The notes under the pieces are model-generated. The model searched no databases and was not told where the DNA came from. It saw only the letters and a program-made list of their open reading frames with translations. A stretch of 64,000 nucleotides of DNA from a phage: the sequence record PZ445517.1; one strand, written 5' to 3'. Of this stretch, positions 9,360-13,559 are shown one piece after another. How positions within the stretch are numbered: position 1 is the stretch's first letter; the number at the start of each line of letters is the position of its first letter. The position numbers were made by a program, and so were the translations under genes.

Positions 9360-9642
9360 GAGAAATAATTCCTTGGTAAGCCCAATAAGGAGGATTAACA
9401 GAATCCTCACCAGAGTTTTCTTCAGGAAAATAAACCTGGATAACAAATCCAGACGCATCAAAGGTAAAATAAACCGTAGGTAGTTCACCTAACAATTCGG
9501 CACGAGTATTAATTTCTTCGAGATCTCGTTCACGTCCAGCCCAAAAACTAGGATTTAGACTACATTCGTAAAAATAATAGTCATTACCGAACATATCAAA
9601 ACCCTTCCAACTCTCTACCACATACCGCTCAAAACTAATCAT
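9331..9642 (-). CDS. hypothetical protein (103 aa)
   Basis: track ORF; 3-prime end overlaps the nrdH start region. Confidence 0.5.
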   Translation of the reverse strand: MISFERYVVESWKGFDMFGNDYYFYECSLNPSFWAGRERDLEEINTRAELLGELPTVYFTFDASGFVIQVYFPEENSGEDSVNPPYWAYQGIISRGTKLELKE

Positions 9643-9644
9643 AA

Positions 9645-9860
9645 TTAAGCCTTTTTATCAAGAACAGAATTCAGTTTGTTAGTAATTTTATCCAGACGCT
9701 CATTAAACTCACTAGAAGATAAGCCCTTTTCTGGAGAAATTAAACTAATAACGAAAAATATAGCAATAAAAGGAATAAGGAAAATAGCTCCAACTGCCAT
9801 AAACAGAAAGAATGTTACAGTTGTAAGAAAATCAGCTAAACCTTTACGAAATTTATACAT
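9645..9860 (-). CDS. small membrane protein (71 aa)
   Basis: track ORF; central hydrophobic segment FFLFMAVGAIFLIPFIAIFFVISLI. Confidence 0.5.
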   Translation of the reverse strand: MYKFRKGLADFLTTVTFFLFMAVGAIFLIPFIAIFFVISLISPEKGLSSSEFNERLDKITNKLNSVLDKKA

Positions 9861-9975
9861 ATTTTACCCTTAATTAATTAACAAAGCATTGATAAGTACT
9901 AAACTATATTGGGAATAAAATTCTGGACCAAAATGAAAAATCATATCATTTATAGTATCCATAATGCAATTCAAT

Positions 9976-10446
9976 TTAATCATGTTTCCACACCCCATCG
10001 GTATTTGACCAAAGTCGCTGATTATCTGATCCTCGCCACAGCTTTTTAGTCGGAAGATTTTTCTCATACTTCCCATCAATAATAACATCAACATATTTAA
10101 GCATTTCTAGTTGTTTAATATCTTCAAACTTATATCCTGTCCACAACCAAATGCTTTTATTGGGATAAAGATTTTTAATAGTTTGAACCACAGAGTGAAT
10201 CACGTCTCTGTTATCAGGATAAAGAGGGTCACCTCCGGTTATAGTCAATCCTTCTATATAATCATTATTCAAACATTCAATTAATTGTTCTAGTGTTTCA
10301 CCAGTGAATGGAACACCATTTCTAGCATTCCATGTTGATTTATTATAACACCCTTCGCATTTATGCAAACAACCCGTAACGAAAAGAACTGTCCTGCATC
10401 CAGGACCATTAACAAAGCAGCACGGGTATATTCTGTCATAATTCAT
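9976..10446 (-). CDS. nrdG: NrdG anaerobic ribonucleotide reductase activating protein (radical SAM)
   Basis: 156 aa; CxxxCxxC-type cysteine cluster (GCLHKCEGCYN); ATG verified. Confidence 0.95.
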   Translation of the reverse strand: MNYDRIYPCCFVNGPGCRTVLFVTGCLHKCEGCYNKSTWNARNGVPFTGETLEQLIECLNNDYIEGLTITGGDPLYPDNRDVIHSVVQTIKNLYPNKSIWLWTGYKFEDIKQLEMLKYVDVIIDGKYEKNLPTKKLWRGSDNQRLWSNTDGVWKHD

Positions 10447-11275
10447 TTATATATTTCCAATTATAGCCTTCAACACTTTTACGTTCGCCATTTAAACATT
10501 TTAAAATATTTCCTTTGCTAGAAATATTAAAATATTTTGCTGCGTCTGGTATATAATTAAATGTTTTTAAAAGAACACCATCTTTATATGCGCCAAATAA
10601 ATTAAGAGTATATTTTTCTCGAAGACGCTGATGTTTCCTTTTCATAACCTCAGGATTTGCATACGCCAACTTCAATGAATTTCTGTGTTTTTCTTTTACT
10701 TCAGGTTTTTGCATTGCTAACTTAGTTAGCCTGGAAATTTTATTTCTAACTTCGTCAGTTTTCATTGCATTTGACAAATTTAATAAAGTTTTATTTCTAA
10801 CTTCAGGTTTTTGCATTGCTAACTTAGTTAGTTCTCTATGTCTTTTTCTAAAATCGTCATCCTTCCATATATTTTTCGATAATTTTGACATAGAGCGGTG
10901 AAATAATTCCTTTTCACTGGAATACAATTTAAAAATTTCATCCAATTCATCCGCATTAAATCTATCGGTATTCGAGTTTATCATTCTATGAAAGGCATAA
11001 CACATTTTACTATTGCTTGTTTTAGCTAAATAGTAATGAGCTAACGCATGGTCATAATATGACAAATTAACAATATTCCATTTATCTGTTTTATATTCAG
11101 GAAATATAGATTTGGGAAGCACGTGATGTGCTTCCGTTTTTCCTTTTATTTTAGGATTATTATAATTTTTTGTTATCAAATCAACATATGACAATAGTAA
11201 ATCATTATTTTCTTCAAATATTAAAGCTAATTTATCATTCACAAAATCGCAAGGATAAAATCTATCATAATTCAT
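10436..11275 (-). CDS. HNH homing endonuclease with C-terminal tandem DNA-binding repeats
   Basis: 279 aa; EAHHVLPKS...YDHALAH HNH region; 27-bp direct repeat in coding DNA gives LTKLAMQKPEV twice; first 14 codons near-identical to nrdG; ATG verified. Confidence 0.85.
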   Translation of the reverse strand: MNYDRFYPCDFVNDKLALIFEENNDLLLSYVDLITKNYNNPKIKGKTEAHHVLPKSIFPEYKTDKWNIVNLSYYDHALAHYYLAKTSNSKMCYAFHRMINSNTDRFNADELDEIFKLYSSEKELFHRSMSKLSKNIWKDDDFRKRHRELTKLAMQKPEVRNKTLLNLSNAMKTDEVRNKISRLTKLAMQKPEVKEKHRNSLKLAYANPEVMKRKHQRLREKYTLNLFGAYKDGVLLKTFNYIPDAAKYFNISSKGNILKCLNGERKSVEGYNWKYINEL

Positions 11276-13089
11276 TGGTGTTTAACCCTATGCATGATTT
11301 CTTTATTTTTACCGAGATTAAATCCGCGTTCATTCGGATTTCCCAAATAACCACATGTTCTTCTTATTGTGTTCATCTTTTTAGGATCAGTTTCTCCACA
11401 GATAGAACAAACAAATCCGTTTTCAGTAGGAGTCATTTCATGGGTACTTCCGCATGTAAAACACTTATCTACTGGCATATTAACACCAAAATAATCTAAA
11501 TGCTGTGCAGCATAATCCCACACGGCCTCAAGACCTTTTAAGTTATTTTTCATATCTGGAAGTTCAACATAAGAAATGTGACCGCCGGTCGCTATGAAAT
11601 GATAAGGCGCTTCACGAGAAATCTTTTCAAACGGAGTAATATTTTCTTCTACTGAAACATGGAAACTGTTAGTGTACCAGCCTTTATCGGTAACATCCTT
11701 TACACTTCCATATTTTTCTGTATCGAGTTTACAGAAGCGATAACAAAGGTTTTCAGCAGGAGTAGAATACAAGCTAAAAGCAAATCCAGTTCTTTCAGTC
11801 CACTGTTTAAGACGAGCATTCATTTTAGTTAAAATTTCTCGTCCAATATCACGACCTACAAGAATATTCAATTCGTGAATACCAATGTATCCTAGAGACA
11901 CTGAACTTCTGCCATTTTTAAATAACTCAATTATATCGTCATCAGGTTTAAGACGAACCCCGAATGCACCTTCTTGGTAAAGAATAGGAGCAACAGTCGC
12001 TTTAACTCCTTTTAAGGAACTAATTCTACACATCAAAGCTTCAAAACACAAATCCATTCGTTCATTGAACAATTCAACAAATTTCTGTTCATTGAATTGT
12101 GTTCCAATATAAGAATCTAACGCGATACGAGGAAGATTCAGTGTTACAACACCGAGATTATTACGTCCATCAAGAATTTCATTACCAGTCGAATCTTTCC
12201 ATACACTCAAGAAACTACGGCAACCCATTGGAGAAACAGGAATAGATGAACCGGTGATAGCTTTATTATTCTTAACTGAAATAATATCAGGATACATTCT
12301 TTTGCTTGCGCATTCTAGAGCGAGCTGCTTAATATCATAGTTCGGATCGTCTTTATAAAGATTAACACCTTCTTCAACGAACATAACAAGCTTAGGGAAA
12401 ATAGGAGTTATCCCATCACGGCCAAGACCTTTAATACGATTTTTCAGAATTGCTTTCTGAATCATTCGTTCAGTCCAGTCAGTTCCCGTACCAAACGTAA
12501 TTGTTACAAAAGGCGTTTGTCCGTTTGAACTAAAGAGAGTATTTACTTCATATTCATAAGCTTGGAATGCATCGTATACGTCTTTTTCTGTTTTAGATTG
12601 GGCGTAATTCAACGCATCAGCGATTTGCCATTTTTCTGCGTCCTCAATATGTTTTGCATAGGTGCGTTTAACATAAGGAGAAAGTACTTTATCTACATTC
12701 GCAAAAGTCGTTCCGCCATATTGATGAGAAGCAACCTGTGCAGTAATTTGTGCCATAATTGCAGTAGCAACGCCGATTGATTTAGGAGTTTCAATCTGTG
12801 CATTACCGAGCTTAAATCCGTTCTCAAGCATTCCTTTTAAATCTACTAAACAGCAATTAGTAAATGGAAGAGCAGGGGAATAATCAATATCATGGAAATG
12901 GATAATTCCGCTTTCATGCGCTTTCATAATAAAAGACGGGACCATATTTTTGGCAATGTGTTTAGACACAATACCAGCCATAAGGTCCCGTTGAGTTGGA
13001 AAAACACGAGAATCTTTATTAGCATTCTCGTTTAAAAGGTCTTTATTAGTTTTATGAATCAATCCTTCAATTTCTTTTTCAATTGTCAT
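11272..13089 (-). CDS. nrdD: NrdD anaerobic ribonucleoside-triphosphate reductase (intron-less)
   Basis: 605 aa continuous ORF; C-terminal glycyl radical and zinc-ribbon region (CFTCGSTHEMTPTENGFVCSICG, RRTCGYLG); ATG verified. Confidence 0.97.
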   Translation of the reverse strand: MTIEKEIEGLIHKTNKDLLNENANKDSRVFPTQRDLMAGIVSKHIAKNMVPSFIMKAHESGIIHFHDIDYSPALPFTNCCLVDLKGMLENGFKLGNAQIETPKSIGVATAIMAQITAQVASHQYGGTTFANVDKVLSPYVKRTYAKHIEDAEKWQIADALNYAQSKTEKDVYDAFQAYEYEVNTLFSSNGQTPFVTITFGTGTDWTERMIQKAILKNRIKGLGRDGITPIFPKLVMFVEEGVNLYKDDPNYDIKQLALECASKRMYPDIISVKNNKAITGSSIPVSPMGCRSFLSVWKDSTGNEILDGRNNLGVVTLNLPRIALDSYIGTQFNEQKFVELFNERMDLCFEALMCRISSLKGVKATVAPILYQEGAFGVRLKPDDDIIELFKNGRSSVSLGYIGIHELNILVGRDIGREILTKMNARLKQWTERTGFAFSLYSTPAENLCYRFCKLDTEKYGSVKDVTDKGWYTNSFHVSVEENITPFEKISREAPYHFIATGGHISYVELPDMKNNLKGLEAVWDYAAQHLDYFGVNMPVDKCFTCGSTHEMTPTENGFVCSICGETDPKKMNTIRRTCGYLGNPNERGFNLGKNKEIMHRVKHQ

Positions 13090-13559
13090 TTTAAACTCTT
13101 TCTAAGCTGCTTCTTAAATGAAGCTATTAATTGTGTTTTAGTGTCAGATTCATTATATTCAAATCCTCTTTGAAGCATCTCAGCCATCATTTCCTCTTTT
13201 CCTAAACGAGAAAATTCCTTTGATTTATCTCCAACGAAGTTAGGGTGAATATTATTTTGGGTGTAATCGGATTTTAAATAAGTAAGTAAATTTTCTAACC
13301 ATTCAAGATAATCAACGCCTTGTCCCTTTAAGCCGGAACGATTAAATTTGTGCTTCATTTGACCTTCCGCAGCATTGCAAAGATTACAGAGCAATCCACG
13401 TACCTTTCCTGCTTTTGGTCCATTTAATTCATGGTCATGGTCAAGGTGATTAGCTTGAACATCAGGATTTAGTTCTCGTTGGCAAATTAAGCATTTACCA
13501 TTTTGTGCATTATAAAATTTTTGTTTTTCTTCTTTATATAATTTGCCAGTCAATAACAT
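13086..13559 (-). CDS. 49: gp49 endonuclease VII (Holliday junction resolvase)
   Basis: 157 aa; matches my recall of T4 endo VII (MLLTGKLYKEEKQKF...CLICQRELNPDVQANHLDHDHELNG). Confidence 0.97.
   Translation of the reverse strand: MLLTGKLYKEEKQKFYNAQNGKCLICQRELNPDVQANHLDHDHELNGPKAGKVRGLLCNLCNAAEGQMKHKFNRSGLKGQGVDYLEWLENLLTYLKSDYTQNNIHPNFVGDKSKEFSRLGKEEMMAEMLQRGFEYNESDTKTQLIASFKKQLRKSLK

Follow-up and report, generated by a model that had tools for sequence, protein, structure and literature searches.

In phage sequence record PZ445517.1, of which we analyzed a stretch of 64,000 nucleotides (nt), hereafter the window, a 279-codon open reading frame (ORF) lies between the anaerobic ribonucleotide reductase gene nrdD and the activase gene nrdG. 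This ORF is probably a "mob"-type gene for a free-standing HNH homing endonuclease of T-even phages, inserted inside nrdG, at nt 40/41 of its coding sequence. The inserted element lacks a start codon for this ORF and is instead fused in frame to the ATG and codons 1 to 13 of the resident nrdG. At its 3' end it carries a weak GGA ribosome-binding site, an ATG, and recoded nrdG codons 1 to 13, and this replacement start keeps nrdG intact without an intron or an intein. The class of T-even free-standing HNH homing endonucleases is already known, as is the hotspot itself, from mobC in T4 and from segH in T6 and RB3. The capture of a start codon combined with a recoded replacement 5' end is a clearly resolved architecture that is apparently undescribed. 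Neither the shared N terminus nor the recoded nrdG start is described in the papers examined that mention mobC; Sandegren et al. 2005 is outside this set and is the likeliest place for such a description.

The reading frames of the three genes overlap, as the original prediction had noticed. The stop codon of nrdD and the ATG of the HNH ORF overlap in ATGA, and the ORF ends in a TGA within nrdG codons 3 and 4, with the nrdG ATG 8 nt upstream of this stop codon and an overlap of 11 nt. It had also been noticed that the endonuclease and nrdG start as near copies of each other while their upstream ribosome-binding regions differ, and both observations hold. The N termini are MNYDRFYPCDFVND for the HNH ORF and MNYDRIYPCCFVNG for nrdG; the first 11 nt are identical, 31 of 41 nt are equal (76%), and identity then drops to chance level, while just 14 of the 40 nt upstream of the two starts are equal. 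A tblastn search of the window with the HNH ORF gave a sole other match, the N terminus of nrdG (13 amino acids [[aa]], 85%, E=0.004). Judged by the comparative data below, it is beyond doubt that the two N termini are homologous and not alike by chance.

Phages lacking the insert reveal which copy is the original. In the insert-free phage teqhad, the nrdD stop overlaps the nrdG start, and nrdG begins ATGAATTACGATAGATTTTATCCCTGTGATTTTGTGAATG and continues with GCCC. In teqhad and 20 insert-free loci from IMG/VR, this overlap measures 4, 11, or 14 nt, and codon 10 encodes the Asp of a PCDF motif in all but one, the exception reading PYDF. (The IMG/VR scan with an NrdG profile gave 22 loci, all insert-free at the junction or too distant; it provides a baseline and no new carriers.) The first 40 nt of the HNH ORF match the teqhad nrdG start at 37 of 40 positions in the window and at 40 of 40 in EcMI02 and TB004, and the three mismatches of the window also occur in another insert-free allele (L009). 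At the left junction, the nrdD 3' end upstream matches resident alleles too, and similarity ends abruptly after GTGAATG (nt 40). The nrdG gene of the window, for its part, shows 16 differences from that of teqhad, 15 of them in nt 9 to 57 (Fisher p=1e-13), and all three bases of codon 10 are changed (GAT>TGC, D10C). Codon 10 is TGC or TGT-TGC ("PCC") in 8/8 carriers inspected, and we refer to this recoded 5' end as CC-type. Insert-free records span 829 nt less than carriers. On these alignments, the copy heading the endonuclease is the resident nrdG start, and the copy heading nrdG is the diverged, recoded one, borne by the element. This reverses the original prediction, which took the start of the endonuclease for the copy. 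Its proposal of an insertion footprint left by partial duplication survives as regards a footprint at the 5' end of nrdG, but the duplicate is not local, since the same recoded PCC copy stands behind the endonuclease in Klebsiella phages, behind segH, and behind T4-type mobC. Phages without the insertion, which the original prediction named as the place where a refutation might come from, do not refute the footprint: they contain a single copy of these N-terminal codons and no second one.

Klebsiella phages (Jiaodavirus) contain the same 829-bp element, inserted at the identical nucleotide. Ten records encode the same enzyme, with 86% aa identity, directly upstream of nrdG. The Klebsiella-phage copy begins MNFDRIYPSDFVN. 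Over these 40 nt, and also further upstream, it shows no difference from the nrdG start region of KpnM6E1, an insert-free phage. Similarity again ends after GTGAATG, and the downstream nrdG begins MNYDRIYPCCFVNG, as in the window. Two lineages thus give up their own 13 codons and gain the same CC-type start, which is what the site-specific insertion of a cassette predicts. Neither local duplication nor selection on the peptide predicts lineage-specific captured starts combined with a common replacement.

Several lines of evidence indicate that the element moves. Between the two genera it is 85% identical, against 70% for the flanking nrdG and 74% for the nrdD 3' end, and synonymous divergence (dS) is 0.86 in the element versus 1.26 and 1.81 in the flanks. 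Among the window, PST, and OMNI12, the endonuclease bodies differ at 2 to 4 of 800 nt (window versus PST or OMNI12, 2/800) and the nrdG bodies (nt 61 to 471) at 7 to 22 of 411 nt (window versus the other two, 17 to 22). The nrdG bodies beside near-identical elements differ by 4 to 5%, and that of the window is 1 nt away from the insert-free teqhad. The first 60 nt of nrdG behave differently: carriers show 0 to 7 differences among themselves and 10 to 17 from all insert-free alleles compared except that of ESh24, which is insert-free but has the recoded patch (2 to 7 differences from carriers). By these counts, nrdG nt 1 to 57 travels with the element, and the element changes genetic backgrounds. 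The distribution of the window-type gene is patchy, with 22 Tequatrovirus-like and 10 Klebsiella-phage records (32 in all) among the 985 matching the locus, most of which are insert-free. The endonuclease evolves under purifying selection, with a dN/dS of 0.08 between genera and 0.12 within the genus. The low divergence, the near-identical copies on different nrdG backgrounds, and the purifying selection fit homing.

The assignment of the protein to the HNH endonucleases, made in the original prediction, stands on PHROG families and on catalytic residues. The 279-aa protein matches phrog_655 (E=7e-37) and phrog_12434, "HNH endonuclease" (E=7e-15), and H50, H51, N67, H76, and H80 are invariant in 7 relatives, T4 MobC among them; no Pfam HNH model matches at E<=0.01. 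The C terminus has weak Pfam matches, PF22083 (E=2.4e-4, 21.1 bits for a cut-off of 27) and PF07453 (E=5.7e-3, also below cut-off). A search of 5.8 billion protein sequences found only 8 relatives, which precludes a deep alignment. Homologues at other genomic sites (T4 MobD, a T6 gene, and the metagenomic P0004-P0008) have unrelated N termini, so that the nrdG-like N terminus is no family feature of the window-type enzyme. Before H50 there is no other ATG than the captured one, which an in-frame stop precedes by 9 nt; the following ATG does not come until codon 91. In the predicted structure, the C-terminal 20 residues have low confidence, and residues 1 to 10 form a block with a mean predicted local distance difference test score (pLDDT) of 64, below 50 for residues 1 to 3, and without a separate fold. 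An intact ORF is present in 7/8 carrier loci inspected. In phage BF15 (L034), a +1 frameshift caused by an extra A in an A-run ends it at 38 codons; this copy may be a pseudogene or a homopolymer sequencing error. The possibility that the gene is a defunct relic was considered and is made unlikely by the dN/dS values. An inverted repeat of 8 to 9 bp, GGAAGCAC-ATCAC-GTGCTTCC, coincides exactly with the catalytic E-A-H-H-V-L-P codons (window 11115-11135). The Klebsiella-phage copy has the same stem with a different loop, and the repeat may be due to chance or form a regulatory hairpin.

How could such an element spread and persist? We propose that the enzyme attacks insert-free phages at their intact nrdG 5' region, making a nick or a cut within a target that would span approximately nrdG nt 25 to 60, and that repair then copies the element plus nrdG nt 1 to ~57. 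In a carrier, the left copy would retain the upstream half of the target and lack the downstream half, and the right copy would retain the downstream half with an altered upstream half. The recoding of nt 12 to 30, notably of codon 10 (GAY>TGC), would thus leave the target split and changed, and the carrier immune. The only difference found in every comparison of insert-free and carrier alleles, in both genera, is at nrdG nt 28-29 (GA>TG), 11 to 12 bp upstream of the insertion point. This proposal parallels that made for MobE (PMC2790892), where polymorphisms of the target in nrdB were suggested to protect the carrier genome (PMC2790892, PMC2988022). Recoding would also reduce the homology between the two 40-nt repeats and allow the element to escape loss by repeat recombination. 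A recoded duplicate may even be needed, because a perfect 40-nt duplication would invite precise excision. That short direct repeats recombine naturally in these genomes is illustrated by the endonuclease ORF itself, where a perfect 32-nt direct repeat encodes LTKLAMQKPEV twice: in the metagenomic natural variant P0002, the stretch missing is precisely the 34 codons that separate the two copies.

The architecture may also determine expression. Since it is fused to the nrdG start and has inherited the ATGA overlap from nrdG, the endonuclease is presumably translated by coupling to nrdD. In turn, the translation of nrdG is probably re-coupled to the endonuclease, given the proximity of the TGA to the new ATG and the presence of only a weak GGA. 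Translation would then probably proceed through the three genes in order, nrdD first, the endonuclease second, and nrdG last. Coupling or short-range rescanning has been discussed for T4 endonuclease genes (PMC2988022). A scan for a sigma-70 nrdG promoter within the endonuclease gave 10 sites, versus 9.9 in shuffled sequence, and the sole late-promoter-like TATAAAT overlaps the nrdG ATG.

Some observations weigh against this interpretation. The PCC patch is also found behind segH (T6, SYGD1) and behind T4-type mobC (SHFML-11 and Klebsiella phage Shark_ER15), while T4 keeps Asp10. As the patch is common to segH and T4-type mobC phages, its link with immunity to the window-type enzyme is tentative, and it may be a long-standing module common to these phages or serve another endonuclease. 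A 50-nt patch probe gave 40 records, all apparently endonuclease-bearing, but megablast missed variants and a chimeric probe was then used. The idea that the patch occurs in carriers only was thereby rejected: ESh24 (L038, 641-730) and U5 (L039, 639-757) combine a native nrdD 3' end with a CC-type nrdG start and no insert. The same probably holds for ERS-1, where, unlike in the two inspected phages, the patch is deduced from identity only. Such cases amount to ~3 of ~450 insert-free records. They could be footprints of loss or resistant insert-free alleles; a crossover within ATGAATTATGA, an 11-nt block shared unchanged by both repeats, would yield precisely the ESh24/U5-type product. In the Klebsiella carriers, the downstream copy equals the insert-free allele from nt 30 on and differs only in nt 6 to 29, so that any immunity must rest on these nucleotides. 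The BF15 copy, if truly disrupted, would also count against a functional enzyme. General recombination, instead of homing of its own, is a possible explanation for the movement of the element between backgrounds. Finally, T4 mobC is listed as free-standing, HNH, and located at nrdG/nrdD, with its activity given as ND and its target as unknown (PMC2988022).

These points feed the most serious alternative, which we nevertheless regard as improbable: that the gene is a passenger without homing of its own, spread by general recombination or in trans, for example by SegH, and that the recoded patch belongs to that other system. The sharing of the patch with segH phages and the frameshift in BF15 are in line with it, as is the listing of T4 mobC without demonstrated activity. 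There is a precedent for homing in trans, as MobE mobilises the defunct I-TevIII (PMC2790892). The dN/dS values and the invariant catalytic residues nevertheless point to selection for the function of the protein, and the identical insertion nucleotide in two genera, each time with fusion to the resident start, is the outcome expected of site-specific homing. Moreover, segH is found in 0/8 carrier loci inspected. In favour of a role for SegH, Sandegren et al., who in 2005 reportedly characterised the nrdD/nrdG locus and deposited the sequences of T6, RB3, LZ2, and U5 used here, are said to have found it to be an active enzyme at this locus.

Much less probable is a partial tandem duplication of the nrdG 5' end in situ, at the insertion of the endonuclease in this lineage, with subsequent drift of the copies. 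Two partially identical copies of nrdG nt 1 to 40 do flank the insert, illegitimate double-strand-break repair can make such duplications in T4 (Parker et al. 1999, as reported in PMC2790892), and the element may have originated in this way, at the initial insertion in some ancestor. Yet the resident allele is the upstream copy and not the downstream one, and drift would neither place 15 of 16 differences within 49 nt nor alter all the bases of one codon. The PCC copy is also the same in Tequatrovirus and Klebsiella phages, whose resident alleles differ, and recurs behind the other two endonucleases, which implies that it travels with mobile DNA and was not formed in this lineage. Least credible is a functional role of the shared N-terminal peptide, such as mimicry of NrdG (NrdD binding or a regulatory signal) under selection on the peptide or the mRNA leader: the N terminus is kept in every intact copy, and distant MobC-like enzymes next to nrdG start similarly (see below), but the 40/40 nt match covers synonymous sites and the non-homologous upstream context and follows the allele of the host lineage, a pattern of recombination and not of peptide selection, while homologues elsewhere in phage genomes lack the peptide and residues 1 to 10 are of low confidence in the predicted structure.

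This slot has other known occupants. Besides the window-type gene, T4-type MobC (at least 95% identity) occupies it in 32 records, a set of its own in tblastn searches with T4 MobC and distinct from the window-type set, and SegH (at least 90% identity) in ~69 records. In the window, the region is 100% identical to that of Escherichia phage T4_ev240 and 95 to 99% identical to those of ~20 other Tequatrovirus genomes; the ORF is annotated "homing endonuclease" in Tequatrovirus relatives and "mobC" in Yersinia phage PST. T4 mobC itself (NP_049689, ORF 55.10) has the same slot and orientation, an ATG overlapping the nrdD stop, and a stop 8 nt inside nrdG. Like the window protein, T4 MobC belongs to phrog_655 (E=4e-43), with a homologous HNH core and a C-terminal GY-WKY--EL. 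It also begins with an nrdG-like MNYDRIY, whose initial codons follow the resident lineage (MNF in Shark_ER15, MNY in T4). However, it has 210 aa, lacks the repeated LTKLAMQKPEV helices, and is 38% identical by BLASTP over 60 aa only; mobC has ~20 nt in common with nrdG instead of 40, of which ~9 are demonstrably of the resident lineage, and a different junction; and the nrdG of T4 retains Asp10, in contrast to Cys10 in the window. On these comparisons, the window protein and T4 MobC are two genes of one family and not orthologues. Distant MobC-like genes upstream of nrdG in Slopekvirus and Cronobacter phages start with MNYQKIY or MNYHKIY, where NrdG starts with MNYIRIY; the MNYx(K/R)IY start in the T4-type family may be an ancient capture or a family trait.

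Two Klebsiella phages, Shark_ER15 and Boboto, encode a T4-type MobC whose protein sequence is 100% identical, and residues ~36 to 105 of T4 NrdG resemble Klebsiella-phage NrdG rather than other Tequatrovirus NrdG (L001, 4447-5539; L042, 1162-2254; L032). The gene may thus have been transferred between genera, with nrdG co-converted in the process.

SegH (GIY-YIG; T6, RB3, LZ2) uses the same hotspot, is followed by the same CC-type nrdG 5' end, and has a stop overlapping the nrdG ATG. It differs in belonging to another nuclease family and in having its own start and a short non-coding spacer, without fusion to nrdG codons. Phages with segH (SYGD1, L030; T6, L037) also have nrdD recoded at its 3' end, where the final ~22 codons read GTPSVVPWNLGKMKEMVKRVKHA versus GNPNERGFNLGKNKEIMHRVKHQ. 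The locus of SHFML-11 (L031) combines a segH-type nrdD end, a T4-type mobC, and a CC-type nrdG, which makes the locus a mosaic of exchangeable modules.

Other systems share parts of this logic. MobE is promoter-less, overlaps the stop of the upstream nrdA, and nicks the 5' region of the downstream nrdB (PMC2790892, PMC2988022). T4 MobE and I-HmuI, which are nicking enzymes, have an N-terminal HNH core followed by a C-terminal DNA-binding module, as the window protein may also have; its I-HmuI NUMOD-like Pfam match lies below cut-off. Unlike the window gene, mobE has a true intergenic position and its own ATG and has captured no codons of its target gene. Closer in spirit are the mitochondrial rps3-LAGLIDADG fusions of Ophiostoma, where the endonuclease ORF is in frame and the displaced coding end is duplicated (PMC7902536). 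As in the window, a coding sequence is invaded without an intron or an intein, and the host gene is kept whole by a duplicate. These mitochondrial fusions affect the 3' end of the host gene and involve other nuclease families in organelles, whereas the window shows the 5' end and start codon in a phage operon with overlapping genes. The mobile element of Allomyces atp6 is likewise an in-frame fusion with the displaced coding segment duplicated. Mob-type HNH genes have also entered coding sequences of ribonucleotide reductase or topoisomerase, as in Aeromonas phage Aeh1, with mobE inside nrdA, and in the T4 mobA/gene 60 cassette, both with function-preserving devices (PMC3045599; bioRxiv 10.1101/2022.08.31.505936). 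Those cases rely on assembly tails on a split protein or on ribosomal bypassing, and this one on a recoded 5' duplicate.

The insertion point coincides with a conserved element of nrdG. Nucleotides 36 to 61 form a 10- to 11-bp hairpin, GAATGGCCCTGG-NNGC-AGGGTCGTTC, followed by TTTTC, with folding energies between -15 and -22 kcal/mol in the majority of T4-like nrdG alleles, across several genera. In the alignment, 93.7% of the cells are paired, with one compensatory pair (C-G to U-A) in 6 sequences, and the score is reached by only 2/500 shuffles. Arg18 is always encoded by AGG at the hairpin. A scan flagged the hairpin as terminator-like, and a terminator is annotated there in one public record. 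The support for this hairpin is suggestive only, as it comes from related sequences of a coding region. The 5' arm is where the insertion (nt 40/41) lies. Among carriers, OMNI12 and Roth78 re-form the hairpin at the right junction, the window retains a weakened version (-10.1), and EcMI02 and TB004 have lost it.

The original prediction also described nrdD as lacking an intron and contrasted it with T4. The 605-codon gene does align contiguously with T4 nrdD, in blocks of aa 1 to 179 and 181 to 605 that are separated by a ~1-kb intron in T4, and an Rfam scan of positions 9500-13500 (E<=1) matched no family, group I introns included. The intron site of T4 and PST (group I, I-TevII) corresponds approximately to window positions 12551-12554, nrdD codons 179 to 181, and is uninterrupted here, which would make the phage a potential recipient for intron homing. 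The suggestion that the endonuclease takes the place of the intron fails: T4 has both the intron, with I-TevII, and mobC at this locus, and PST has the 279-aa endonuclease together with the intron. The nrdD intron and the free-standing endonuclease are independent and not alternatives. The coordinates of these features are given in Table 1.

Table 1. Features of the nrdD-nrdG locus in the window
Feature	Position	Strand	Remarks
nrdD	11272-13089	minus	605 codons, continuous; anaerobic ribonucleotide reductase large subunit; Pfam PF13597, E=1.9e-171
HNH homing-endonuclease ORF (probable)	10436-11275	minus	279 codons; T4 mobC slot; named mobC in phage PST
Captured resident nrdG start	11236-11275	minus	ATG and codons 1-13, equal to HNH ORF nt 1-40
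Inserted element, 829 bp	10407-11235	minus	HNH body from codon 14, plus recoded nrdG nt 1-40 at the 3' end
HNH catalytic core, residues 50-80 (HH...N...H...H)	11036-11128	minus	
32-nt direct repeat, copy 1	10800-10831	minus	Encodes the LTKLAMQKPEV helix repeat
32-nt direct repeat, copy 2	10698-10729	minus	
C-terminal NUMOD1 / I-HmuI NUMOD-like domain, residues 237-272	10460-10567	minus	Putative DNA-binding domain; PF22083 below cut-off
nrdG, radical-SAM activase	9976-10446	minus	156 aa; Pfam PF13353, E=9e-49
Recoded CC-type nrdG 5' end, nt 1-57	10390-10446	minus	15/16 differences from insert-free allele, including GAT>TGC (D10C)
Hairpin and U-rich tail, nrdG nt 36-61	10386-10411	minus	Window copy weakened to a 6-bp stem

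Three further observations concern the related loci. In Jiaodavirus (L004/L032), nrdD is followed by an extra ORF of 72 to 79 codons, which runs with its 3' end 29 nt into the start of nrdG and whose C terminus is altered by the insertion of either endonuclease. With a 1.8-kb query, every carrier record contains a second matching place, and none lies inside the 64-kb window. In Klebsiella phage UTI-K1 (L005, 2456-3292), GenBank labels the endonuclease as a second "ribonucleotide reductase class III activating protein." The label is apparently an artefact, likely arising from the shared N terminus, through which annotation pipelines take the endonuclease for another NrdG activase.

The usual descriptions of free-standing homing endonucleases place them between genes. 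At this locus the genes leave no room between them, a problem that would be solved by fusion and by a recoded substitute. Whether start-codon capture with a recoded spare constitutes a distinct lifestyle of homing endonucleases, encompassing expression, immunity, protection from excision, host dependence, position relative to an attenuator, and a slot shared by three endonucleases, is a tentative idea that we consider rather doubtful as a whole. If true, the element would take over the nrdG initiation site and first 13 codons and hand back a recoded replacement start. This one device would provide nrdD-coupled expression, self-immunity with codon 10 (GAY>TGC) as its key, freedom from repeat-mediated excision, and host dependence, the latter because the translation of nrdG would be re-coupled to the endonuclease frame. 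Insertion in the 5' arm of the hairpin would place the endonuclease gene before the attenuator, on the nrdD transcript, and the window-type HNH gene, T4-type MobC, and SegH would exchange before one common recoded nrdG module. For the mob genes, of which only mobE has a known activity, the insertion mechanism favoured above yields a precise prediction: the target would lie in nrdG nt ~25 to 60, codon 10 would be the determinant of resistance, and ESh24 and U5 would carry natural resistant alleles. The lower divergence of the element and the 100% identity of T4-type MobC suggest that mob-type elements cross between genera of Escherichia and Klebsiella phages.

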